Shown in pieces: positions 1 through 35,570 of a DNA stretch of 64,000 bases (positions within the stretch are counted from its first letter, which is position 1; each line of letters begins with the position of its first letter). Below the pieces are notes generated by a model. The model saw only the letters and a program-made list of their open reading frames with translations, was not told where the DNA came from and ran no database searches. The DNA is from an uncultured Eubacteriales bacterium. GTDB taxonomy: Bacteria; Bacillota; Clostridia; Christensenellales; UBA1242. Both the position numbers and the translations under genes were made by a program. The stretch is taken from positions 15,353 through 79,352 of the forward strand of contig CATLAM010000001.1 of assembly GCA_949878485.1 (NCBI GenBank), given 5' to 3'.

Positions 1-12
1 AATATAAAAAAC

Positions 13-738
13 TTGTCTTTTGGAATTTTGCAGGACAAATTAGGAGATGTTTACGAAAAATTTGTAGTGAATACTCTCGAAAATAAAGATTATATTGCAT
101 CATATAGAACTTCTAAATCTATGAAAGATTGGGAATTTAATTTATTCTCGGACATTTTGAACGGATATAATATCAATTGTACTAATGTTAATAAAATTAC
201 AGCAACAGATCCTGTGCCTGTAAGAATGTCTCATGGATTATCTAAAACTGATGTTATTATGACATTAAATGAGAGAGACAAATTCCCAATAAGTGTTAAA
301 CAATCTACAGCGAAGAAAGTTGCCTTTGCAGAATTTGATGTTGATACAATTGTTAAAGAAGTAGGCATAACCGACCCCCAATTAATAAGATTATTAAAAA
401 AACATCAAACAGATGCTTCAGCAAAAAATTTTACAAAAGAAGAAAAAGAATCTTTAACTGAAAAATTAAAACCTATTGCTAGAAATTTTGTTAGATGGGT
501 CATTACAGGATCTCCTGTTGTTAGTAATGATATTAGGATCCCAACAATGATAGTTAAATTTGACATTAATAAGAACAACAATTCTCTAAAATCATATAAA
601 GTTTACAACATTGAAGAATATATTGACTCAATCATGTATGATAAGCACGGTAATGTAAAGAAAGGTGGATTTGGAACAGGTTTAAGTTGGACTTATGCGA
701 CTGGTTCAAAAGGCAAGAAAATACAGTTTAAAGCATAA
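13..738 (+). CDS. type II restriction endonuclease candidate (PD-(D/E)XK-like, HinP1I/MspI-like by recollection)
   Basis: The frame is open to the window's left edge, so the 5' end is uncertain (the track start is TTG). 'SKTDVIMTL...ISVKQS' fits a D-Xn-(S/Q/N)-x-K active-site pattern. The C-terminal '...KKGGFG...KKIQFKA' tail resembles HinP1I as I remember it. The gene is convergent with two DNA MTase genes. Confidence 0.45.
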   Translation: MSFGILQDKLGDVYEKFVVNTLENKDYIASYRTSKSMKDWEFNLFSDILNGYNINCTNVNKITATDPVPVRMSHGLSKTDVIMTLNERDKFPISVKQSTAKKVAFAEFDVDTIVKEVGITDPQLIRLLKKHQTDASAKNFTKEEKESLTEKLKPIARNFVRWVITGSPVVSNDIRIPTMIVKFDINKNNNSLKSYKVYNIEEYIDSIMYDKHGNVKKGGFGTGLSWTYATGSKGKKIQFKA

Positions 739-740
739 AA

Positions 741-773
741 AATGGAGTTCAAATAAACTCCTATTTTTTTAAT
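741..773. terminator. bidirectional intrinsic terminator between convergent genes
   Basis: Hairpin GGAGTT-loop-AACTCC is flanked by an A-run upstream and a T-run downstream. Confidence 0.55.
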
Positions 774-2101
774 TTTTTTATCGCTTCCACAAAACTTCTT
801 GCAAGAGCCTTTGCCATTATTACTGGAATTGCATCTCCAATTTGTTCGTATTTATCTTGTTGTGGATCACTATGAAATTTAACATATGGACCTTCAAAAG
901 TATACCAATCCGGAAACCCTTGAAGTCTTGCAACTTCTCTTGGTGTTAATTGTCTATTTTCTGTTGGATGAACCATTTCATCTAGACAATGAGATGTTAC
1001 TGTGTAACTTGGCTCGTTCTCTTTTAATCGTCTGTTCCGAGAACTATATATTTTATTAGGGAAACACTCCTTGACTATGTCAGATTTACCTTCAGAAATT
1101 AATCTATCAACTGCTGACTGCATTCCTTCCCCTTGCTTAATATTCTCAAAACGCATAATCATTTTTTTGCTATGGTTCAGAGACTTTTGATATGTGGTTT
1201 TTTGCTTATCATAACTTGTTTTTTCGCAATATTCATCGCCATATATAAATCTGTAATAAAGATAAGCACCCTCTGTAATATTACCATTTTTGTAATCTTC
1301 TTCATAGTTTGGCTGAGAAATCATTTCTTCCGCACCGTCATTGCTATGAATTTTAGGTAAATATCTAAATGCATCTTTTACAGTTATGTTATTAAACTTT
1401 CTACCTTTACCATGTGTTTTTTCTGGGTATGTGAAAGTATTTTCTTTGTATTTGCTGTTACAACCAACTATAAATAATCTCTCTCTTTTTTGTGGTGTGC
1501 CATAATCTGATGCAAGACATTTATAAACTTCCTTGTCTTTACTTGCCAAATTATAATGGGTATGAGTTATCGGATCATCTTTTTCAAACTCATTTATGAC
1601 ATATTCAATCTGACCTCCAGCTTTACCATTTCGTTTTTTTGTTAATAATCCCGGCACATTTTCAAACATAACAAACTTTGCATCAACACAATGTCCAATT
1701 CTTAATATGTTTGAAAAGAGGTCATTTCTCTTGTCATTCTCTAATCTCTTTCCAGCCATTGAAAAACTTTCGCAAGGAGCACCGCCTGTTACTATATCAA
1801 CTGAATCTTCATTAAATTTCTTTTTTAAGATTTCTTTAATGAGTTCGTTGGAAAAATTATTTATGTCCCCGTGGATAACACATGTTTTATCAGTCTTAGA
1901 TAAAACGTTTTCTAATTGACCTATATTTTTAACTAAATCCTCTAATTCATATATTTCTGCATTGTGAGATTCTGCATAAGTTTTCACTGTGAATTCACTA
2001 AAATCTACTGCGATTCTTGGTATTAGTCCTTCACTTTTAAATCCAGTACATAATCCTCCAGGTCCAGAGAATAAGTCGATATATGTTATAAGTTCTTTCA
2101 T
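761..2101 (-). CDS. DNA (cytosine-5)-methyltransferase
   Basis: m5C MTase motifs are present: I 'DLFSGPGGL', IV 'GGAPCESFS', VI 'ENVPGLL', VIII 'QKRERLFIVG', X 'GDAIPV'. The start is chosen at ATG 2101 (AAGGAG SD upstream), giving an ATGA overlap with the upstream MTase stop. Confidence 0.9.
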   Translation of the reverse strand: MKELITYIDLFSGPGGLCTGFKSEGLIPRIAVDFSEFTVKTYAESHNAEIYELEDLVKNIGQLENVLSKTDKTCVIHGDINNFSNELIKEILKKKFNEDSVDIVTGGAPCESFSMAGKRLENDKRNDLFSNILRIGHCVDAKFVMFENVPGLLTKKRNGKAGGQIEYVINEFEKDDPITHTHYNLASKDKEVYKCLASDYGTPQKRERLFIVGCNSKYKENTFTYPEKTHGKGRKFNNITVKDAFRYLPKIHSNDGAEEMISQPNYEEDYKNGNITEGAYLYYRFIYGDEYCEKTSYDKQKTTYQKSLNHSKKMIMRFENIKQGEGMQSAVDRLISEGKSDIVKECFPNKIYSSRNRRLKENEPSYTVTSHCLDEMVHPTENRQLTPREVARLQGFPDWYTFEGPYVKFHSDPQQDKYEQIGDAIPVIMAKALARSFVEAIKKLKK

Positions 2102-2862
2102 TTTGTCTCCTTTAAAATACGGTGCATAGCTAACTCGCAATATTGTATTTCTTTATCAATTCCTATGCCGTTTCTGTTTAACTGCTTAGCAGCTATCACT
2201 GTTGAGCCACTACCCATGAACGGATCTAAAATAGTGTCACCTACATAGGAAAATAGCTTTATACATCTTTTGGGAAGTTCAACAGGAAATGGTGCAGGGT
2301 GTCCAATTTTCTTTTTGCTTTCTCCCTTAAAAGTCCATACACCATTTGTCCAACTTACAAATTCTTCTTTGGTAATATCATTTTTTCTTGAGCCAGAAAT
2401 CTTTTTCCAATTGCCTTTATATAAAACTATAATTAATTCTACAGGCGCAATTACATATGGAGAAGATGCACTTAACCAAGAACCCCAAGCTGATGACTTA
2501 GAAATATTTCCTTCATTCCAGACAATAGTTGAGTGGTATTTCCAGCCAACATTTTTAGCAATTGTTGTAATATCTGCACCAATGCTACGATGTCCACCCT
2601 TATTTGTATCCAATGGAATATTTAAACACATTCTTCCATCATCTTTTAATAAGTCTAAGCATTTTTTTAGCCACTTCTTAGTGAATTTTAAATAATCTTC
2701 ATAGTTTAAGTTATCATCAGTGGATGTATATTCAATGTTTAGATTATAAGGAGGTGATGTCACAATGAGATCTACACTTTCAGGTTTAACAAATGAAGTT
2801 GTCAAAATATTGTCGCACAATATTTTTGCATTTTCCTCTTCAAAGTAAATCCTATTTTTCAT
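2098..2862 (-). CDS. beta-class N4-cytosine/N6-adenine DNA methyltransferase
   Basis: Motif IV 'TSPPYNL' precedes the AdoMet motif 'FMGSGST' (beta-class order). The start is chosen at ATG 2862, preceded by GGAGGG. Confidence 0.85.
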   Translation of the reverse strand: MKNRIYFEEENAKILCDNILTTSFVKPESVDLIVTSPPYNLNIEYTSTDDNLNYEDYLKFTKKWLKKCLDLLKDDGRMCLNIPLDTNKGGHRSIGADITTIAKNVGWKYHSTIVWNEGNISKSSAWGSWLSASSPYVIAPVELIIVLYKGNWKKISGSRKNDITKEEFVSWTNGVWTFKGESKKKIGHPAPFPVELPKRCIKLFSYVGDTILDPFMGSGSTVIAAKQLNRNGIGIDKEIQYCELAMHRILKETK

Positions 2863-2998
2863 GTTCCCTCCATAAGTATTTAACATATCTTTTAATTTTT
2901 TGTATCAAACAGCCAAAGAATTAGATACTGAACTATATCAAACATATTAAGCCGTAAAACAATTGAAAAGTCTAGCGATTTAGTGATTTTTAGTAAAT

Positions 2999-4381
2999 TT
3001 ATATCTTACCTAGCAGATTCTTTGATATTAAGTTTAAAACGTCTGACCCTGGCTGCATGTTTATAATGCTATATTTTTTGCTCAAAACAGCAGGAATTAT
3101 TGAATTACTAAACATATCGCTATCAAAATCATCTAAGAATTTAATATATCTATCTAGATCTTTATAATTTTTTATATTTGATTTTTCGTTCTTAAACACT
3201 TGAAGATTCGATTTATCTCTATATGGATAAGGTATTTGAAAAACCTTGATTTTACCTTTGCTATTTTTATAGATAAAATCTTGTCCATAAAAAGTTTCAT
3301 TGCCAAATGTTGTTCCTGATTCGATTTTATGGTAATCTATATATTTAGCTCTGAACTCATCTGAAACACAACATATTGTCGAATTTAATAAATGCTTATT
3401 TAAAAAGTTGGCGTAAGACAGGACAGAAGAGCTTTCAACTATACCTATTATCATTAATCTATTAAAGCCATGATCTTCCAAGTCCTTATTAATATCGTAG
3501 ATAAACTTCTGCATACTACTATAAAAACTTGCAGGTGTTCCATATATAGCAAGTGAACCATTTATAACGAAAATTGAATCACTAAGTATAGTTCTATAGT
3601 TCTCCGAATTTAGCAATTTAATCATCCTAATGTTATGGGCCAATAATAAATGTTTTATAAAGTTATCAAACCTTGTCAAAGGTGAGATATTGCTAGCTGA
3701 ATCTTCATTAATTTCTTCCCATAATCTCAAAACGTCACTTGGATACAATATACAATGACACTCTTTACAAAATTGTTTCTCATTTACATTAAATACTTTT
3801 ACATTTTTAGCTTTGCAAGAAGGACATCTACTCAAAGTTATTATGTTTGGATTTTCACCATTTTTTAACGAATTTAAATAAAATAATGTTGCCAATAAAG
3901 AAGTCTCTTCATTTGCCTCATCCGTTTTATAACTTTTTAACATTTCATATAGTCTTAACCTAAAACTATCGGTAACAGTTTTTTCATCTTTGTAAAGCAT
4001 ATTACTACTTGGGAGAATAAAAGTATACGCCTCTTTTTCTTTTTGCAGTCTAGCCACTTCAAACGGATCTAAGAATCTTCGATTCTCTAATGAGGTTATT
4101 CTATTTTTTCTTAATAAAAAGTTAGATACCTTAATATAACCTACATTTGTGAATGGTATATCATCCCGTACTTTTGCCTCATAGTGATCAGAAGCAATGG
4201 CTATTATATTGTTAGGATATATTTCACTTTCATTAATATGTAAATCATTGAAGTAACTCTTAATTTTTTCCAATTCGTTATCATTTGGTTCATGCATAAA
4301 TTGACATGATTTTAAAAATTCTGCAACTTCGATATTTTTTGTTATTTCTAAAAAGCCTGCTTGTCCATCAAAATTACTCAT
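2999..4381 (-). CDS. NurA-like nuclease candidate with inserted CxxC...CxxC zinc ribbon (tentative)
   Basis: 'IIAIASDHYE', 'VINGSLAIYG' and 'IIGIVESSSV' resemble the NurA strand motifs (xDGS / DGSL / GvxK-S) as I recall them. The zinc ribbon reads 'CPSCKAKN...CKECHC'. ATG 4381 has an AAGGAG SD and overlaps the HerA stop by 8 nt. Confidence 0.35.
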   Translation of the reverse strand: MSNFDGQAGFLEITKNIEVAEFLKSCQFMHEPNDNELEKIKSYFNDLHINESEIYPNNIIAIASDHYEAKVRDDIPFTNVGYIKVSNFLLRKNRITSLENRRFLDPFEVARLQKEKEAYTFILPSSNMLYKDEKTVTDSFRLRLYEMLKSYKTDEANEETSLLATLFYLNSLKNGENPNIITLSRCPSCKAKNVKVFNVNEKQFCKECHCILYPSDVLRLWEEINEDSASNISPLTRFDNFIKHLLLAHNIRMIKLLNSENYRTILSDSIFVINGSLAIYGTPASFYSSMQKFIYDINKDLEDHGFNRLMIIGIVESSSVLSYANFLNKHLLNSTICCVSDEFRAKYIDYHKIESGTTFGNETFYGQDFIYKNSKGKIKVFQIPYPYRDKSNLQVFKNEKSNIKNYKDLDRYIKFLDDFDSDMFSNSIIPAVLSKKYSIINMQPGSDVLNLISKNLLGKI

Positions 4382-6416
4382 TTTTAACTCCTTTGACAAA
4401 ATTTGACGGATCAAACTTGTCTATTTGGATTGGAATAACGAAAGGACTTGACAATGTCTTCACTCTAGTAAAACCAATATCTTGTGATTTTAACAATGAT
4501 TGACTAAAATCACCAAAATCATAAAATTTTGCAAGCTCTTTTATTTCTTTCTCACTATTTAAATGACTAACAAACCAGTTTTCAGTATTTGCAAGTATAT
4601 TTGGATGAATAGAAGAAACCTCTTGGGTAGCATATACTAAACCAATTCTATATTTAGCTCCTTCTTTTGCAATTCTTGGCCATGTATTGGTTAACTCCAT
4701 ATTTTTACCAATTAGATTGTGCGCTTCTTCTATATATATAACTATATTTTTTGGTTTCTTTCCCTCTGTGAATATTTTCATCGATTGATTGAAAATGTAC
4801 TCTGCGATATCTTTACTAATTCTTTCTCTAATTAATGCATTACCTACTGAGAGATCAATTATGACAATTTTTCCTTCGCACAGACTATTATAAATTTCTT
4901 CTCGCACATCAGAATCTCTTTCAAAACTGTGATATTTCTGAGCTTCAGTAATTGCTTTATAGCCATTAAAATAGCCGTCAGAGTCATTTCTCATACACAA
5001 CATATTTAACATTATTCTGCATTCTTCTGTAATCCAATGGTCTATTATATCTGCGTCAGTTGGATTATATTTGCGTTCTTCTTTTGATTTTTTATTCCTA
5101 GCAATATCTGTAATTTCTTTTTTTATCTCTTGGCTAATTCTTCTTAAATTAGTAAACCATATTTTACTTTCATATAATGTCAATCCATCTTTAGGATCTA
5201 CATCTGGATTTACTAATCTCCGAATATCCTTATTTGCTTCAAAATAGACTTTATAGTTACTAGGGGCTGAAAATTTCGCCGCATAAAGCAATGTTTTATA
5301 CAGTGCAACTTTTTGATTCCATCTAACCGTTTCTCCCTTGTTTCCTTCTGGTGGTTTATCAAAAGAGATACTATTCATAAATAAATTTAAATCTGCGGCA
5401 CCGCTACTACCATATTTTTCTCTAATACAATCACAAATAATTGAATGTCCTTCTTCTAACTGAGTATAAAAATTGTTTAAAAGAGGCTTAAACCCTTCAG
5501 TTTTAACACTTCGATACCTTATACAGTCGTCTTTGTAGATCTCCGCAATAGAACCTTTATCTTGGTCATTTGCGTTTGCATATTCTCCATTTATATCATA
5601 AATTATTTGTCCGATATCTAAAGTACACTCTTCTGAAACCTGTTTTACAACAGATACTGTCTGTTTAATCATATTAGATTTGCCAGTTCTAGTCATACCT
5701 AATACAGCAGTTCTTCTGGCCAAAAAATCAGAAGGTTGTATTGAAAATGGTATTAAATCATTTAAATCTGACCTGTGCAACCTATCTGTAGAAGTATAAC
5801 GAACAGTCCCTATGCGAAAAGGGTCTACATCTTTTGTAATACCTAACTCCTTAAAATCTTCTTTGAATTTTTCCTTTCGAATAGGATCAACATAATTAAC
5901 AATTTCTTGTAGCGACTCGCCATCTGGCATATAAACTTTCATCTTTAAAGCGGTTGAATAATTCTCAATATCACTACCAAGGTATAAATTCTCATTTTTT
6001 AGATAAAAAGTCCCTAGAACTCTGCATTCCAAGCCACTAAATTGCATTTTATTTTTTGTTAAGATATCATAATCTTGCTGATTAGGAAGATCCTCAACTT
6101 GTTGCTGATTTTGATAATTGTCGATTCTTGTCTTTATCATATCGTCATCTTGTGGCAACTTACAAGAATTTGTTACTCTTAAGAGAATAACTTCTTTATC
6201 TATCTCCTGCGTTGTGGCAAATTTTTCCGTGTCTAGAGATGTGGCAATTAAAAAACTATTATGAGGAATGCCTCTAACATTTGATTTCCATTCATCATTT
6301 GTCATTATAAGGGCATTTTCGTAGTCAATTGAAAATACCCAACCAACAAAATTATCCTTTTGCACCAGATTACATAACTTATTATTTTTAGAAATGGTTT
6401 CTATCAGATTATTCAT
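4374..6416 (-). CDS. HerA/FtsK-superfamily (DUF87-type) ATPase
   Basis: Walker A is 'GMTRTGKSN' and Walker B is 'IVIYIEEAHNL'. 'GLVYATQEVSSI' is typical of HerA. The N-terminal region looks barrel-like. A strong GGAGG SD is present, and the start overlaps the Dam stop by 8 nt. Confidence 0.75.
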   Translation of the reverse strand: MNNLIETISKNNKLCNLVQKDNFVGWVFSIDYENALIMTNDEWKSNVRGIPHNSFLIATSLDTEKFATTQEIDKEVILLRVTNSCKLPQDDDMIKTRIDNYQNQQQVEDLPNQQDYDILTKNKMQFSGLECRVLGTFYLKNENLYLGSDIENYSTALKMKVYMPDGESLQEIVNYVDPIRKEKFKEDFKELGITKDVDPFRIGTVRYTSTDRLHRSDLNDLIPFSIQPSDFLARRTAVLGMTRTGKSNMIKQTVSVVKQVSEECTLDIGQIIYDINGEYANANDQDKGSIAEIYKDDCIRYRSVKTEGFKPLLNNFYTQLEEGHSIICDCIREKYGSSGAADLNLFMNSISFDKPPEGNKGETVRWNQKVALYKTLLYAAKFSAPSNYKVYFEANKDIRRLVNPDVDPKDGLTLYESKIWFTNLRRISQEIKKEITDIARNKKSKEERKYNPTDADIIDHWITEECRIMLNMLCMRNDSDGYFNGYKAITEAQKYHSFERDSDVREEIYNSLCEGKIVIIDLSVGNALIRERISKDIAEYIFNQSMKIFTEGKKPKNIVIYIEEAHNLIGKNMELTNTWPRIAKEGAKYRIGLVYATQEVSSIHPNILANTENWFVSHLNSEKEIKELAKFYDFGDFSQSLLKSQDIGFTRVKTLSSPFVIPIQIDKFDPSNFVKGVKNE

Positions 6417-7290
6417 TAGTTCCTCCTAAAAAATTTATTGATGTATTTAATTGTTTTAATTCTTCTTCGCTTGGCCATAAACTATTATTTGACAAGAAAA
6501 TAATTTCTTCCGTTTTTCCAGTATTTGCTGCGCTATGATTGATTCTATAAGTCTTGATTAGATATTCACTATATATTTTTTTTATACTTTCTTCATTATC
6601 ATAAGTCACCATCCAATAATCACTTATACCTTTTATCTTTTTACTTAATTCTATATGATCTCTATCCGTAAAGAAGTTTTTATATAAATCTTTTCCTTTT
6701 TTGTAATATGGTGGATCAAAGTAAATAAAGTGGTTTGGATACTTTGGCAAAATCTTATCAATAAAAGTGCGGACCTCTTTGTTATATAAATGAATTTTAT
6801 TTTTGTATCTTGAAATTAACTTAATTTTATTAATTAAGTCATTTTTATTAAATCTCGCATCTATTTTGTATAAACCATTTTGTTTTATTCCTCCAATTGG
6901 TCCAGCTTTAATAATCCCAGAATGATTGGTTCTATTTAGATAAAATGTCGCAAATCCCAACTCTAAAGAAAACTTGCTGTTTCTCGTCAAATAAATTTGT
7001 CTTTGTTTTTCCCTTTCCTCGACAGATACAGGAGTTCTCTCTAATAACTCTATAAATTGCTTTGGGTAAGATAAGATAGATTTCCAGAACGAATAAATCG
7101 ATTTATCATAGTCATTGATAACAATACTATCAACAACACCATCCAAAAGTAAATCTAAAGCAACTCCTGCACCTCCCGCAAATGGTTCGATGTATACTAA
7201 ATCCCTAGTAGATTTGTTTATCATACATTTTACCAATGGTGCAATTTTAGCTTTTCCACCTGGATATCTTAATGGGGAATAATTTTTCAT
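6409..7290 (-). CDS. Dam-type (D12 class) N6-adenine DNA methyltransferase
   Basis: 'RYPGGKAK', 'EPFAGGAGV' (AdoMet motif) and 'FDPPYYKKG' (DPPY) are present. There is an ATGA overlap with the upstream ORF. Confidence 0.85.
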   Translation of the reverse strand: MKNYSPLRYPGGKAKIAPLVKCMINKSTRDLVYIEPFAGGAGVALDLLLDGVVDSIVINDYDKSIYSFWKSILSYPKQFIELLERTPVSVEEREKQRQIYLTRNSKFSLELGFATFYLNRTNHSGIIKAGPIGGIKQNGLYKIDARFNKNDLINKIKLISRYKNKIHLYNKEVRTFIDKILPKYPNHFIYFDPPYYKKGKDLYKNFFTDRDHIELSKKIKGISDYWMVTYDNEESIKKIYSEYLIKTYRINHSAANTGKTEEIIFLSNNSLWPSEEELKQLNTSINFLGGTNE

Positions 7291-8138
7291 ACAAACTCCT
7301 TGTAAAATTTTTTATCAATTTCAAAATAATCCTCTTTGTTCTGGTCATCGATCAGTATAAGATAAATCAACTCAATATTATCTTTCACAATATTCATCAA
7401 ACCTTTTGACTTGTAATAAATATTTTTATTCAAATATGCTTTTGCACCAACAACAATTTGATTTTCTCTGTCTAGGCAAAAAATTCCGTCCTTAGGAGTA
7501 GTTTCAACATAACATTCTTCTATAACAAATTCATTTTCACTGGAAACTATCTTTAGATTTATTCTTTTAATCCTTACTTCATTAGAAGAGTTGTTTTTTA
7601 AGGTAATATTGAATGTGTGTGTAAATTTGCTGTATACTCGTTTCAATTTATTAACATTTATACACAATTTATCTTTTCTGTCATACATTTTATCTATATC
7701 TGTACGATTAGCAATATGATTTGTAGCATTTTTTCTAATATATATTTCGCCTTTTCTCAATTTATCTGATCCAAGTGACTTATATTCCTTTTTTATAATA
7801 TAAGGCTTTTCATCTGCTGAGTCAAAAATCTGAATGTATCCTATTTTCTTACCATCAATTGTTTTATTACCTACAGAAAAGTGAATAGTTGGTTCTACAT
7901 ATGTATCTACGATCTGTTGCAAATTTGAAATGTCTGGCAAATCATCTGTTATACCACATACATTAAAAGTAGCATTTTCAATACCAAATACAATGTATCT
8001 GTCTCCAGGAGCAATGCAATTTGCAAATGAGATCATATCTTTAACTAAATCATAATACTTACTTTTATCATAAAACTTCAGTTTGACATCCAAATTATCG
8101 GATTCTTGTTTTTTACTTAATAGCATTTCTAAATCCAT
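7287..8138 (-). CDS. AlbA_2 / Schlafen-type domain protein with an uncharacterised C-terminal domain
   Basis: The N-terminus 'ESDNLDVKLKF...MISFANCIAPGDRYIVFGIE...GEIYIRKNATN' matches the AlbA_2 pattern (E..lefK ... aFaN..GG.iv.Gv ... G.vyiR). It is the first gene of the overlapping four-gene operon. Confidence 0.55.
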   Translation of the reverse strand: MDLEMLLSKKQESDNLDVKLKFYDKSKYYDLVKDMISFANCIAPGDRYIVFGIENATFNVCGITDDLPDISNLQQIVDTYVEPTIHFSVGNKTIDGKKIGYIQIFDSADEKPYIIKKEYKSLGSDKLRKGEIYIRKNATNHIANRTDIDKMYDRKDKLCINVNKLKRVYSKFTHTFNITLKNNSSNEVRIKRINLKIVSSENEFVIEECYVETTPKDGIFCLDRENQIVVGAKAYLNKNIYYKSKGLMNIVKDNIELIYLILIDDQNKEDYFEIDKKFYKEFV

Positions 8139-8393
8139 ATTTATACCTTTTGTGATTACTCCCTACGATGTAATTATAACATAAATTCCCGCAAACTGTT
8201 AATATTTAAAAAGATTTATTAAATTTTATTTTTAACAAATATTTTGTAGGTTTAGAATTTTTATAGAAAAGAACAAAACTCTATATATAGCAGCCGCTTA
8301 GGAGAACTTTGCATTATCCTTTAGAAATATCTTCAAAAGAGTTGCAAAAGATTTTTATTTAAGTTAAAACACAAAGCAACTCGAGGAGGAGTT

Positions 8394-8627
8394 ATGAAAA
8401 ATTTAATTGATTTAGTTAATAAATCGTTTATCGCTTCTGATGAACTGAATGGCAAGTTGACAAAGGCAAATGAAATGAAAATGAACTTTGTTTCGAGCTT
8501 AAATGACAAACAATGCATTGAATTTTTGAAGCTTTGTTCTGAGCTAGAAGAATTGCAAGATATGAAACTAAAAGAATACATCAATCATACTTACAAGGTT
8601 TGCAAAGAAGCCTTTAAGTTGAGATAA
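8394..8627 (+). CDS. small hypothetical protein (paralog A, 77 aa)
   Basis: A GGAGGAG SD lies 3-9 nt upstream of the ATG. It shares N-terminal 'L(I/L)xLV' and C-terminal 'VCK(E/D)xFxLR' with the ORF at 9049-9288. Confidence 0.5.
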   Translation: MKNLIDLVNKSFIASDELNGKLTKANEMKMNFVSSLNDKQCIEFLKLCSELEELQDMKLKEYINHTYKVCKEAFKLR

Positions 8628-8726
8628 CTTAATTCAATCATATAGTAATCGTAATTTTGTTGTATATTTTCTCCAGATAGTTGCATTTTTTACAACTTTC
8701 TGGAGCAAATCCACATTGGAGGACTT

Positions 8727-9092
8727 ATGAAAGCAATTTTTTTGTGCGATGTTCCAAACGCTCGGTTGTTAAGGAATCACCTTGACAAAGACAAAGGGCT
8801 GGCGGTCGAATATGTAATTGAAGGAGTTATTTATTTGTCTAAGCGATATTTTATTCCCTTTCGTGAACATCTTATGAAAGCTACACCCTTTGTGTCTTGT
8901 CACAAAGAAGATATGTTTATTGATGAACAAGGTGTTTGGCATGTATTGATGTTCTGCTGTTTACAATCGGACATTATATTGCTTGTAAATAGCAATGGCG
9001 AAGATTATGCCAAGTATTGTAGCATTATTTCAAATGGAGGTGAGAAAGTTGAACCACGTTTTACAACTAGTCAGAGATATATTAGAAAATGA
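8727..9092 (+). CDS. hypothetical protein (121 aa)
   Basis: A TGGAGGA SD lies upstream of the ATG. I recognised no family. Confidence 0.4.
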   Translation: MKAIFLCDVPNARLLRNHLDKDKGLAVEYVIEGVIYLSKRYFIPFREHLMKATPFVSCHKEDMFIDEQGVWHVLMFCCLQSDIILLVNSNGEDYAKYCSIISNGGEKVEPRFTTSQRYIRK

Positions 9093-9288
9093 AAAAAGAG
9101 CTGCTGAAGAGCAGTTGCAATTAAATAAAGTCTGTGAACTTGAAGACAAGTTTGTTAAAGACTTTTCAAAAGAAAAATGGAAAGAGTCCTTTGATTTAGA
9201 TATAGAAAAAGGTCAACTTCATAATCTTGAAATTGAACGCGTGATTGAGATTACATGCAATGTTTGTAAAGATTTATTTCTTAGATGA
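9049..9288 (+). CDS. small hypothetical protein (paralog B, ~79 aa)
   Basis: An in-frame TTG at 9049 is preceded by GGAGGTG. ATG 9034 is an alternative start. The C-terminus 'NVCKDLFLR' parallels 'KVCKEAFKLR' of paralog A. Confidence 0.4.
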   Translation: MNHVLQLVRDILENEKRAAEEQLQLNKVCELEDKFVKDFSKEKWKESFDLDIEKGQLHNLEIERVIEITCNVCKDLFLR

Positions 9289-10005
9289 TTTTTTCTGATT
9301 AGTTTTTAGATTTGTTTTTTCTTTGGATTTAAATTTACTGCTATTTACAATTAAATCGTTAATAATTTCTTCATGCTCCACATCATATTTTAATTCAGCA
9401 TTTGCGATATGATAAACTTCACGTATGTAAACAATTAAAAATAATATTTCCTTGTTTATTACTTTTTCACACACTTCTTTTTCTTCGGCTTTTGCATTTT
9501 TGAGCAGTTTAATATTATCTTGTATATCTCTCAAAATTAATAACACATTATTTGGCACATTCATAAATATATAACTTAAATCATCTTTGAATATTTTATA
9601 ATTATAGTTCCCTCTTTTTAACTCGATTAAATATTGTATGATGATATAGATGGAATTATCAAATCTATCATGTTGCTCATCATTTCTTTTTTTGTTTGTA
9701 CTATAAATAACTCCAACAACACTTAATACTCCAACAATTAATGCGACAATGCCTCCTGTTCTGGAAGGAGCTTCTACAGACCAAAAAATTAAAAGAGCAA
9801 CTAGAAAAAGTATCACACTGATTCCTGCTAAACAAGTTATTATTATCCCTAACCAAGCTAAAGAAGCAAGCAATGTGATACCAAATGTATCGAAATCTTT
9901 TTCTATTATCAACTTGCTATCTTTGTTTTTTCTATATTTTTTTATTCGCTTTTTAAATACCCAAGCCTTTATGTCAGAAATTAAACTATGGTATAATGTG
10001 AACAT
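9274..10005 (-). CDS. hypothetical membrane protein (2-3 TM helices plus a helical cytoplasmic domain)
   Basis: AAGGAG SD. Hydrophobic stretches include 'ITLLASLAWLGIIITCLAGISVILFLVALLIFW' and 'IVALIVGVLSVVGVIY'. Confidence 0.55.
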   Translation of the reverse strand: MFTLYHSLISDIKAWVFKKRIKKYRKNKDSKLIIEKDFDTFGITLLASLAWLGIIITCLAGISVILFLVALLIFWSVEAPSRTGGIVALIVGVLSVVGVIYSTNKKRNDEQHDRFDNSIYIIIQYLIELKRGNYNYKIFKDDLSYIFMNVPNNVLLILRDIQDNIKLLKNAKAEEKEVCEKVINKEILFLIVYIREVYHIANAELKYDVEHEEIINDLIVNSSKFKSKEKTNLKTNQKKSSKK

Positions 10006-14501: not shown

Positions 14502-15980
14502 TTACAACAATATGCAAAGCACTCCGCCCTTACCTTCATTGATGATTCTGCCAAGAGTTTTACGCATTTTGCGTTGAGCGTCTGCTGGCATCATAACAAT
14601 CTTAGATGAAATGTTGTCATCAATCATTGAATAAAGGCTCTTACCAAGAAGATTGGTATCCCAAATTCCTTGTGGGTCATTTTCAAATTTGTCATTTAAA
14701 AATGCAGCAAGGTCTTGACTTTGATTTTCATTTCCAACAAGTGGAGTAACTTCGCTTTCAACATCAACTTTGATGATGTGCAAACTTGGTGCTGTCGCCT
14801 TAATCTTAACACCAAACTTGTTGCCTTGTTTAACAACTTCTGGTTGTTGTAAAACATATTCATCTTTGTTTGGAACAACAATTCCATATCCATTTTGTTC
14901 CACTTCTTCCAAAGCGTTTTTAAGTTTGTCGTATTCCACTTTTGCAACAGCCAAATTTTTGATGTATGAAACAAGTTCATAGTCATCTCCAATTCTGAAT
15001 CCGCATTCATCAGAAAGCACATCATAGAAAAGATTTTCCTTTGGAACAATGTTAAATCTGATTACACCTTCACCCATTTCAACATTAGAGAATGTGATTG
15101 GGTCAAAACTGTTGCTTTCCGTAAACACAACTGTATCCTTATTTGCATCTCCAACTTTTTTCACGCTGTCAGCAAACCTTCTGATTTCGCCAACCATTTC
15201 TGTGATGATTGGATTTGAATAAGAAAGTGCTTGCAACCATTTTGGCATTTTAACTTTAATGCTTTTAACAGGAAATTCCAATAAAATGCTGGCAAAAATT
15301 TTGTCAATGTCGCCTTCTTTAAGGTCTGAAACATTCATGGCAAGCACTTGTGATTCATATTTTTCTGACAAGTTTGATGCCAATTTTTTGCTTTCTGCAC
15401 TGTTTGGATTTTTGCAGTTCAAAACAATGACATAAGGTTTTCCGCTTGCTTTCATTTCAGACACAACACGCTCTTCTGCTTCAATATAGTTTGCTCTTTC
15501 AATGTCAGAAACAGAGCCATCAGTTGTGACAACAATGCCGATTGTCGAATGTTCTTCAATCACCTTTTTGGTGCCAACTTCTGCGGCTTTTTCAAAAGGC
15601 ATTTCTTCATCTGACCAAGGTGTTTTAACAAGTCTTGGCTTGTCATTTTCTGTTGTTCCCATTGCACCTGACACAAGATAGCCAACACAATCAATAAGTC
15701 TGACTTTCAAGTTGATTTTGTCTGCAACTGAAATTCTTACTGCTTCATTTGGCACAAAGCGTGGTTGTGTTGTCATAACTGTTTTGCCATCAGCACTTTG
15801 TGGTAACTCGTCAATCGCACGTTGTTTAACATTTTTATTTTCAATGTTTGGAATGACAAGTTTTTTCATAAACTCGGAAATAAAAGTGGATTTACCAACT
15901 CTTACAGGTCCGACTACGCCAACATAAATATCGCCGTTGGTGCGGGATTTTATATCTTCGTAAATTTGTTCTTTTTCCAT
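14502..15980 (-). CDS. spoIVA: stage IV sporulation protein A
   Basis: 'MEKEQIYEDIKSRTNGDIYVGVVGPVRVGKSTFI...ELPQSADGKTVMTTQPRFVPN' is closely parallel to B. subtilis SpoIVA. The product is 492 aa from ATG 15980, which has a GGAGG SD. Confidence 0.95.
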   Translation of the reverse strand: MEKEQIYEDIKSRTNGDIYVGVVGPVRVGKSTFISEFMKKLVIPNIENKNVKQRAIDELPQSADGKTVMTTQPRFVPNEAVRISVADKINLKVRLIDCVGYLVSGAMGTTENDKPRLVKTPWSDEEMPFEKAAEVGTKKVIEEHSTIGIVVTTDGSVSDIERANYIEAEERVVSEMKASGKPYVIVLNCKNPNSAESKKLASNLSEKYESQVLAMNVSDLKEGDIDKIFASILLEFPVKSIKVKMPKWLQALSYSNPIITEMVGEIRRFADSVKKVGDANKDTVVFTESNSFDPITFSNVEMGEGVIRFNIVPKENLFYDVLSDECGFRIGDDYELVSYIKNLAVAKVEYDKLKNALEEVEQNGYGIVVPNKDEYVLQQPEVVKQGNKFGVKIKATAPSLHIIKVDVESEVTPLVGNENQSQDLAAFLNDKFENDPQGIWDTNLLGKSLYSMIDDNISSKIVMMPADAQRKMRKTLGRIINEGKGGVLCILL

Positions 15981-16049
15981 GTAAACCTCCAAGATACCAT
16001 AATTTATGTAAGTCCACAATCGTTTAGAACGATATATAAAAAAATCAGC

Positions 16050-35484: not shown

Positions 35485-35570
35485 GCCGAAGTGGCGGAAT
35501 GGCAGACGCACGGGACTCAAAATCCCGCGAGGGCAACTTCATGTGGGTTCGACTCCCACCTTCGGCACCA
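35485..35570 (+). tRNA. tRNA-Leu(CAA), type II with long variable arm and encoded CCA
   Basis: GCCGAAG acceptor pairs with CTTCGGC. D-arm is GGCGGAATGGCAGACGC. The anticodon stem-loop CGGGA-CTCAAAA-TCCCG carries anticodon CAA. There is a long variable arm and the T-arm GTGGGTTCGACTCCCAC. Length is 86 nt. Confidence 0.9.

Follow-up and report, generated by a model that had tools for sequence, protein, structure and literature searches.

A methyltransferase-HerA-NurA cassette with a linked Schlafen nuclease on a mobile island of an uncultured Eubacteriales bacterium: a candidate restriction-modification-like defence system

Introduction

It is established that the canonical HerA-NurA pair acts in DNA end resection (see the passage on this pair in PMC12977600). 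The two protein families have also been recruited to defence in TdpABC, a phosphorothioate-based system of thermophiles built on a HerA-like and a NurA-like protein, described by An et al. (Nat Chem Biol 2025) as cited in a passage of PMC12914056 (structures PDB 8wet, 8wfd, and 8y1k), and HerA hexamers with an effector other than NurA are described for SIR2-HerA and DUF4297-HerA in passages of PMC11291478 and PMC11472057. Here we analyze a stretch of 64,000 nucleotides (nt) of contig CATLAM010000001.1 from an uncultured Eubacteriales bacterium, the whole of which we call the window, and in it an operon of four minus-strand genes (Table 1) encoding a Schlafen/AlbA_2 protein, a D12 methyltransferase, a HerA ATPase and a NurA-like zinc-ribbon protein (genes 1 to 4). 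With a confidence a little better than even, we read it as an anti-invader cassette riding a mobile island, in which methylation would mark self, HerA together with an inactive NurA would act as the sensor and the Schlafen protein as the effector.

The first gene brings in a second line of previous work. The defence protein pSlfn5, a tRNA-cleaving product of a single gene, joins a Schlafen domain to an immunoglobulin-like (Ig-like) domain by which a tail assembly chaperone of T5 is sensed (PMC13056530). The active site of another prokaryotic Schlafen, CbCash, is formed by E17, D22, and K24 with Mg2+, and the substitutions E17Q, D22N, and K24A abolish tRNA cleavage (PMC13462974). According to the same study, more than half of the defence-associated Schlafens adjoin restriction-modification (R-M) systems or other nucleases, their activation being unexplained and the sensing of DNA structure being speculated; its authors also describe a cluster of Schlafens with unknown C-terminal domains as "associated with restriction-modification systems" (PMC13462974). 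This cluster may include the family of the gene 1 product, although HerA and NurA are not mentioned there.

The NurA-like protein and its active site

The 460-residue product of gene 4 matches no Pfam, PADLOC v2, NCBIfam or PHROGs model, and searches of PDB sequences with the single sequence and with a 31-sequence profile returned zinc-ribbon noise only. Of its 31 homologues, however, 14 match Pfam NurA (PF09376; best E 3.7e-14). The AlphaFold model (predicted local distance difference test, pLDDT, 82.9) has TdpB as its top Foldseek match (8wfd_G, E 3.2e-08, 13% identity), followed by NurA of Sulfolobus, Thermococcus, Deinococcus, and Pyrococcus, and a 65-sequence family profile matches TdpB at E 0.0072, covering the N-terminal "MPY" start and the "DGS" and "DGPLA" motifs. 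Relative to TdpB the family has an extra zinc-ribbon segment of ~85 residues, whose CxxC...CxxC cysteines (C186/C189 and C205/C208) are invariant in the family. On the predicted structure, the protein is a NurA/TdpB fold with an inserted zinc ribbon. A preliminary description, made from the letters of the window alone, had called it NurA-like with such a ribbon, and the homologue and Foldseek matches agree with this; profile and structure searches led to NurA/TdpB and not to an unrelated family.

In the family at large, three acidic positions reach a conservation of at least 90%, namely D63 (in AIDGS, on strand beta-1), E243 (in xEHL, on the helix before beta-4), and D274 (in DGPLA, at the end of beta-4), and a histidine at position 435 is likewise conserved. 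The two aspartate motifs align to "VDGG" and "KDGRLA" of TdpB, and we take the D...E...D...H layout to match the Mn-binding site of Pyrococcus and Sulfolobus NurA. In the window protein the four positions are occupied by A63, K243, N274, and K435, and judged by its sequence the protein looks catalytically dead.

The loss follows the presence of the Schlafen gene. In the 80 loci that were fetched for gene-neighbourhood counts (numbered loci below carry the prefix L), D/E/D is kept in 54 of the 54 without a Schlafen gene, and at least one of D63, E243, and D274 is lost in 21 of the 24 with one. Additional loci read DEDH where Schlafen is absent (L091 and L097) and AKNK, DKNE, and DMSQ where it is present (L084, L086, and L092, respectively). 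On a neighbour-joining tree, from which the order of loss was read, decay starts at the node where Schlafen appears and affects H435 first, then E243, D274, and D63. The sister locus without Schlafen (L027) is DEDH; the basal Schlafen-bearing loci (L013, L022, and L023) have DED followed by R or K; and later branches show D-M-D, D-M-N/S, and D-K/R-N. D63 was lost in three branches, as A in the window and L001, as A in L024, and as N in L004, L007, L016, and L020, and D274 was also lost in several.

The degenerate genes are nevertheless not decaying as a whole and stand under strong purifying selection. The ratio of nonsynonymous to synonymous substitution (dN/dS) was computed from divergent pairs with unsaturated dS, the comparison of the window with its 99%-identical copy L082 offering too few differences, and amounts to 0.05-0.08 for the degenerate NurA-like genes, 0.03-0.06 for HerA and 0.04-0.11 for the methyltransferase. 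GxETYYGQDF, the zinc ribbon, and YxxDxLRxxE stay invariant in the family, as do the acidic residues D216, E222, D341, E362, and D368.

The Schlafen protein

The gene 1 product matches Pfam SLFN_AlbA_2 (PF04326, E 1.4e-14) and PADLOC PDC-S50 (E 1.3e-21). Its AlphaFold2 model (pLDDT 82.7) consists of a nuclease domain at about residues 1-150 and a beta-sandwich or Ig-like C-terminal domain at about 158-273. In Foldseek, the structures similar to the N-terminal domain are the DNA-binding domain of SAMD9 and the nuclease domains of SLFN5/11/13/14, in agreement with the AlbA_2 fold that had been proposed for the protein; the all-beta C-terminal half matches ApaG, PCuAC, and PapD-like sandwiches, a likeness at the level of the fold only. 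The family profile matches CbCash (PDB 9ylu, E 3.3e-05), and the catalytic E17/D22/K24 of CbCash align to E12/D17/K19 of the gene 1 product, which are invariant in 17 database homologues and in all 23 complete orthologues from genome loci. By these residues the protein looks catalytically competent. The two halves evolve differently, the mean pairwise identity among orthologues being 48% for the N-domain versus 23% for the C-domain.

All members of this Schlafen subfamily that were examined are encoded by the first gene of the four-gene cassette, and the cassette-linked relatives include two metagenomic proteins (38% and 29% identity) and one from a viral contig. Within the 80 loci the gene occurs in 24, only in one Firmicutes clade. 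The AlbA_2 protein is more than an accessory binding domain: the Schlafen E-D-K triad is intact in an architecture of Schlafen plus Ig-like domain as in pSlfn5. Its gene, which the preliminary description had counted as part of the cassette, is confined to one clade and stands outside the conserved core.

The methyltransferase-HerA-NurA core and its distribution

The gene 2 product matches Pfam MethyltransfD12 (E 1.8e-23) and has the motifs FAGGAG at residue 37 and DPPY at 192. Its PADLOC matches are PD-Lambda-5_B (E 7.5e-110) and MTase_II (E 7.1e-84), and against TIGR00571 dam it scores 71.5 bits, under the cutoff of 114.85. Its motifs and matches identify it as a D12-class N6-adenine DNA methyltransferase of the same subfamily as the PD-lambda-5 methyltransferase; of its 73 orthologues, 72 retain DPP[YF]. 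The gene 3 product matches Pfam DUF87/HerA (E 3e-08), with Walker A GMTRTGKS at residues 240-247 and Walker B IYIEEAH at 560-566, and its best PDB sequence match is TdpA (8wet_A, E 6e-23) over the C-terminal ATPase region 512-666. The NCBIfam HerA models give only 23-58 bits against cutoffs of 800-970, and the PADLOC HerA models give weak, partial matches of at most 67.7 bits. Walker A is identical in all 78 full-length HerA orthologues, which share 43-80% identity across phyla. All four domain assignments of the preliminary description thus hold, including the DPPY methyltransferase and the HerA/FtsK ATPase with its two Walker motifs, that of gene 4 by way of its homologues and the AlphaFold model.

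In a scan of one genome per species over 185,579 species, the NurA-like protein was found in 124, with hosts in the Bacillota, Bacteroidota, Pseudomonadota, Cyanobacteriota, Chloroflexota, Acidobacteriota, and Bdellovibrionota and in one archaeon, and an exhaustive profile search gave 880 cluster representatives at 50% identity. HerA is encoded directly upstream of the NurA-like gene in all of the 80 loci, and a D12 methyltransferase gene is adjacent in 72, on either side and in some cases on the other strand. Such variation in the position and strand of the methyltransferase gene is typical of R-M gene pairs. Three of the eight loci without D12 are cut by contig ends; two others (L045 and L053) have an N6_N4 methyltransferase gene immediately downstream, and in another (L031, from Roseithermus) HsdR-like, HsdM, and HsdS genes adjoin the pair. 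On a haloarchaeal plasmid the gene order is DUF87, NurA-like, DNA methyltransferase. No conserved modification gene other than a methyltransferase was found beside the HerA-NurA pair in the 80 loci. The type of methyltransferase is therefore exchangeable and a methyltransferase is nearly always present, which fits a generic self-marking role. This is the constant partner that the self-marking proposed in the preliminary description requires, the function itself being inferred.

These findings indicate that the conserved unit is the methyltransferase-HerA-NurA trio and not the quartet. Of the conserved four-gene cassette that had been suggested, the trio is widespread and the four-gene order recurs in related loci, whereas Schlafen is found only in the one clade. 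RefSeq annotation does not recognize the trio as a system; it labels the proteins "DUF87 domain-containing protein," "hypothetical protein" or "NurA," and "DNA methyltransferase."

Some loci carry further genes beside the core. In three cyanobacterial loci (L035, L043, and L061), a PIN-domain gene of ~150 codons lies between HerA and the NurA-like gene. Fourteen loci, mostly from Chloroflexota (L033, L036, L039, L041, L044, L046, L048, L050-L052, L054-L056, and L059), have after the NurA-like gene, on the same strand, a gene for a UvrD-like helicase with a PD-(D/E)XK nuclease domain, often followed by an N6_N4 Mod-like methyltransferase and a ResIII helicase; this gene may be a clade-specific accessory or part of a type III-like system next to it. 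On the Tolypothrix plasmid NZ_CP050441.1, a distant relative (L096; 25% identity) has the order helix-turn-helix protein, DUF87, NurA, and a large "exonuclease domain-containing protein"; no methyltransferase is listed there in the PLSDB gene table, which is incomplete, and the locus may represent another HerA-NurA variant.

Operon structure and mobile context

Re-derivation of the coordinates gave values identical to those first reported for four co-directional minus-strand open reading frames (ORFs) with overlapping ends. The overlaps are ATGA at 7287-7290, 8 nt at 6409-6416, and 8 nt at 4374-4381. As also reported, three of the four starts have a clear Shine-Dalgarno site, AAGGAG for the methyltransferase, AGGAGG for HerA, and AAGGAG for the NurA-like gene; that of gene 1 is weak (AAAAGG only). 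For gene 4 we adopt the ATG start, as in homologues and by the gene callers; an alternative upstream TTG at 4414 would give 471 residues. The four-gene operon is real and its gene order not a matter of chance, because the same order recurs in every related locus examined.

The candidate promoter lies 35 nt upstream of the gene 1 start codon and is the top-scoring site within 600-9400; promoter-like sites are no commoner in the region than in shuffled sequence, so that it is a candidate only. A pattern scan found no terminator-like site between the stop of the NurA-like gene (2999) and the start of the N4/N6 methyltransferase gene (2886), and the six minus-strand genes could therefore be co-transcribed. 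The sole terminator-like hairpin on the operon strand, also a pattern match, runs from 761 to 744, after both downstream methyltransferase genes.

These two genes belong to a type II R-M cluster at 13-2886, directly downstream of the operon, which is the island setting beside an R-M cluster with two further methyltransferases that had been described. Past the window start, the element carries the MspI-like restriction endonuclease, an ASCH protein, a tyrosine integrase, a Ser/Thr kinase, a rolling-circle Rep, and an Nmad3 protein. A second contig contains a block of 9.3 kilobases (window positions 1-9294) at 99.06% identity, and from ~9294 on the flanks differ, the second contig having Fic, UDG, RmuC, and MurB and the window genome a membrane protein, PMT_2, and SpoIVA. 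Because the block recurs in a second context and an integrase-bearing element extends past the window start, the cassette can be said to ride an integrative mobile island. Five related loci lie in IMG/VR viral contigs. Related loci are flanked by genes of defence and of mobile elements, among them type II and type III R-M systems, DpnII with Mrr, GmrSD, an OLD-like AAA_15-TOPRIM protein, UvrD-PD-(D/E)XK, ResIII-restriction endonuclease, and recombinases of the serine or tyrosine type. Around the operon in the window, neither mre11 nor rad50 was found.

Inside the island, three small ORFs diverge from the operon; the product of the 121-residue ORF matches phrog_21303 (function not assigned), those of the 77- and 84-residue ORFs match no family, and they could be regulators or anti-defence cargo. 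Elsewhere in the window, the SpoIVA homologue (Pfam SpoIVA domains were found on the identical gene in L081) indicates that the host is a spore-forming Firmicute, with a G+C content of ~30-38%, and a tRNA-Leu(CAA) gene is the sole RNA gene detected.

Table 1. Features of the window, with the operon first (positions count from the first letter of the window)
Feature	Position	Strand	Remark
Gene 1, Schlafen/AlbA_2 protein	7287-8138	minus	ORF of 283 aa
Gene 2, D12 methyltransferase	6409-7290	minus	ORF of 293 aa
Gene 3, HerA ATPase	4374-6416	minus	ORF of 680 aa
Gene 4, NurA-like zinc-ribbon protein	2999-4381	minus	460 aa from ATG
Candidate promoter, TTAACA-18-TATAAT with extended TG	8173-8202	minus	11/12 matches; pattern match
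N4/N6 methyltransferase	2098-2886	minus	Pfam
C5 cytosine methyltransferase	761-2101/2140	minus	Pfam
Bidirectional hairpin terminator	744-761	both	pattern match
MspI-like restriction endonuclease	13-738	plus	true start just before the window
Small ORF, 77 aa	8394-8627	plus	divergent from operon, inside island
Small ORF, 121 aa	8727-9092	plus	divergent from operon, inside island
Small ORF, 84 aa	9034-9288	plus	divergent from operon, inside island
SpoIVA homologue	14502-16019
tRNA-Leu(CAA)	35485-35570

Discussion

Our preferred reading of the core trio is that of an R-M-like system which depends on ATP, is homologous to TdpAB, and forms the methylation counterpart of the phosphorothioate-gated Tdp system. 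In this model the methyltransferase would mark host DNA, and the HerA-NurA complex would engage DNA and act on that which lacks the mark. Degradation of such DNA presumably falls to the NurA partner in the majority of lineages, where its D-E-D-H site is intact. One Firmicutes clade, to which the window belongs, gained a Schlafen nuclease that has a variable Ig-like domain and whose gene is coupled in translation to that of the methyltransferase; after this gain the NurA active site decayed, while HerA, the methyltransferase, and the rest of NurA stayed constrained. We propose effector replacement because a linked and intact Schlafen nuclease, the progressive loss of the NurA site, and strong purifying selection go together. 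At the window locus, HerA with a dead NurA would be a methylation-sensitive DNA sensor or scaffold and the Schlafen nuclease the effector; to judge from Cash and pSlfn5, this nuclease probably acts by cutting tRNA, with growth arrest as the outcome.

A bolder version of this scheme, which we offer only tentatively and regard as rather less probable than not, is that of a rewired restriction, in which the pseudo-enzyme NurA with HerA detects foreign DNA in a methylation-sensitive manner and switches on the Schlafen tRNA nuclease, so that a restriction that degraded DNA would have become an abortive response directed at translation, and in which the core trio would form an unrecognized, phylum-spanning class of ATP-dependent R-M system homologous to Tdp.

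The observations comprise the gene content, the folds and motif states of the proteins, their co-occurrence, the selection on the genes, and the mobile context; the defence function, the role of methylation as self mark, the coupling of HerA-NurA to Schlafen, and the Schlafen substrate are inferred. Several points weigh against the effector-replacement reading. The link between Schlafen and NurA decay is phylogenetically a single acquisition in one clade, though the losses within that clade are multiple, and the three basal loci that keep D/E/D beside Schlafen indicate that an active-looking NurA and a Schlafen nuclease can coexist. The assignment of E243 and H435 as the NurA catalytic Glu and His is a provisional one, made from motif position, secondary structure, and the layout of NurA structures. 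A substitute active site built from the invariant D216, E222, D341, E362, and D368 is also conceivable. As to novelty, we found no description of a methyltransferase-HerA-NurA system in the full-text literature searched, whose coverage is incomplete and does not extend to the primary Tdp paper, and that paper may already mention methyltransferase-linked relatives.

The main rival explanation, which we consider unlikely, is that two independent systems share the operon, a pSlfn5-like Schlafen sensor-effector and a methyltransferase-HerA-NurA restriction system that degrades DNA by means of non-canonical residues. By analogy, the Schlafen protein could act independently of HerA-NurA, since pSlfn5 works as a single gene and responds, through its Ig-like domain, to a phage tail assembly chaperone (PMC13056530). 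The variability of the Schlafen C-domain (23%, versus 48% in the nuclease domain) is what is expected of a sensor of phage proteins, PADLOC lists the Schlafen-like match under the single-gene candidate PDC-S50, and the five acidic residues just named stay invariant in the NurA-like protein. These residues, however, do not appear to be replacements, because they are equally invariant where the canonical site is intact. Moreover, the Schlafen subfamily is found only inside the four-gene cassette, its frames usually overlapping or nearly abutting, and the loss of D-E-D-H is both confined to the Schlafen clade and progressive, which co-location alone would not predict.

The model of the preliminary description, in which a HerA-driven NurA-like nuclease is the effector and the methyltransferase marks self, AlbA_2 then being only a DNA-binding accessory, likely describes the ancestral mode, as the 54 Schlafen-less loci all keep D-E-D-H and TdpAB is the closest relative. 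For the window locus we hold it to be improbable. AlbA_2 domains can be plain DNA binders, as the match to the SAMD9 DNA-binding domain recalls, and D65 of the window protein might partly replace D63; yet A63, K243, N274, and K435 stand at the four catalytic positions of the family, which makes a translocase-nuclease an unlikely effector here, and the Schlafen catalytic triad is complete in every orthologue.

Least probable of all is a role in housekeeping or element maintenance, as a HerA-NurA end-resection or repair module with an orphan methyltransferase or as an addiction module of the island: the end-resection function of canonical HerA-NurA, the RefSeq label "DNA double-strand break repair nuclease NurA" on distant relatives, and the integrase-bearing element speak for it, but there is no mre11 or rad50 nearby, the distribution is sporadic, the pair is constantly accompanied by a methyltransferase whose type can vary, defence genes lie around it, a repair nuclease is not expected to lose its active site under selection, and R-M-like systems can double as addiction modules, so that addiction and defence are not exclusive.

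If the core trio works as proposed, modification-gated HerA-NurA restriction would not be peculiar to thermophiles and their phosphorothioation but a general architecture able to use ordinary methyltransferases, with D12, N6_N4, and type I enzymes interchangeable. The trio is missed by current defence finders; it occurs in Firmicutes, Bacteroidota, Proteobacteria, Cyanobacteria, Chloroflexota, Acidobacteriota, and archaea. The Schlafen clade would represent a natural experiment in effector replacement, with stepwise loss of an active site under purifying selection after a second nuclease had joined the operon. It also gives a testable hypothesis for the activation of many R-M-associated prokaryotic Schlafens, which is named as an open question in PMC13462974. 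A Schlafen nuclease switched on by a DNA-sensing motor would, if true, be a bacterial parallel to the DNA-linked activation proposed for human SLFN11.

Comparison with known systems

The preliminary description recognized no named system in the cassette, and PADLOC v2, NCBIfam, and Pfam give none either; comparison with PD-lambda-5, MADS, SIR2-HerA, and DUF4297-HerA also fails. PD-lambda-5, the two-gene "RM + Abi" system of an E. coli prophage, has a methyltransferase of the same subfamily, but PD-Lambda-5_A matches none of the seven proteins scanned and PD-lambda-5 has no HerA, NurA or Schlafen. MADS, of about eight genes with MAD6, MAD7, and MAD8 mandatory, is represented by a single weak mad8 match (E 2.6e-10) in the HerA P-loop region, and no PADLOC Hma model was matched. 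SIR2-HerA and DUF4297-HerA offer a precedent for HerA as scaffold or activator of a non-NurA effector, but no SIR2 or DUF4297 match was found in the operon with PADLOC or Pfam and those systems have no methyltransferase; the SIR2-HerA of S. thermophilus is unrelated. The HerA/FtsK "capture" systems, DndFGH, and BREX-related capture were likewise set aside, having no NurA and other partners.

The HerA-NurA end-resection complex shares with the window the two protein families and the gene order, and NurA structures of four organisms match the NurA-like protein. In contrast to that complex, the window pair has no Mre11/Rad50, is linked to a methyltransferase, is sporadic and on mobile elements, and has the zinc-ribbon insert; its HerA falls far under the NCBIfam cutoffs and its NurA-like protein has no Pfam NurA match.

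The preliminary description named no close characterized relative, but one exists in TdpABC, a HerA-like/NurA-like pair gated by DNA phosphorothioation, which reportedly inhibits TdpAB. Both systems combine a HerA-family ATPase, a NurA-fold partner, and a single DNA-modifying enzyme, and the window HerA has its best PDB sequence match in TdpA, while for the 460-residue protein TdpB ranks first by structure as well as by profile. They differ in that the modification gene of the window encodes a D12 adenine methyltransferase and not the phosphorothioation enzyme TdpC, and in that the NurA-like protein is ~85 residues longer through its zinc-ribbon insert, the similarity being remote (13% identity; profile E 0.0072). 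Unlike TdpB, the window protein has a degenerate nuclease site (A63 and N274), which is intact in family members outside the Schlafen clade, and in the window clade a Schlafen gene has been added.

This added protein resembles those of pSlfn5 and Cash (Schlafen with Csx15) in its N-terminal Schlafen nuclease domain with an E-D-K triad, and pSlfn5 also in the joining of a conserved nuclease domain to a variable C-terminal beta-sandwich. In contrast to pSlfn5, however, the Schlafen gene is never alone and stands first in an operon with the methyltransferase, HerA, and NurA-like genes. The window cassette has no cyclic-oligonucleotide sensor. With R-M systems in the broad sense, it shares a DNA methyltransferase that is genetically coupled to a putative DNA-targeting component. 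The kind of system is thus already known, both as a modification-gated HerA-NurA pair and in the use of Schlafen effectors, and its unusual feature would be the evolutionary hand-over from a NurA nuclease to a Schlafen nuclease.

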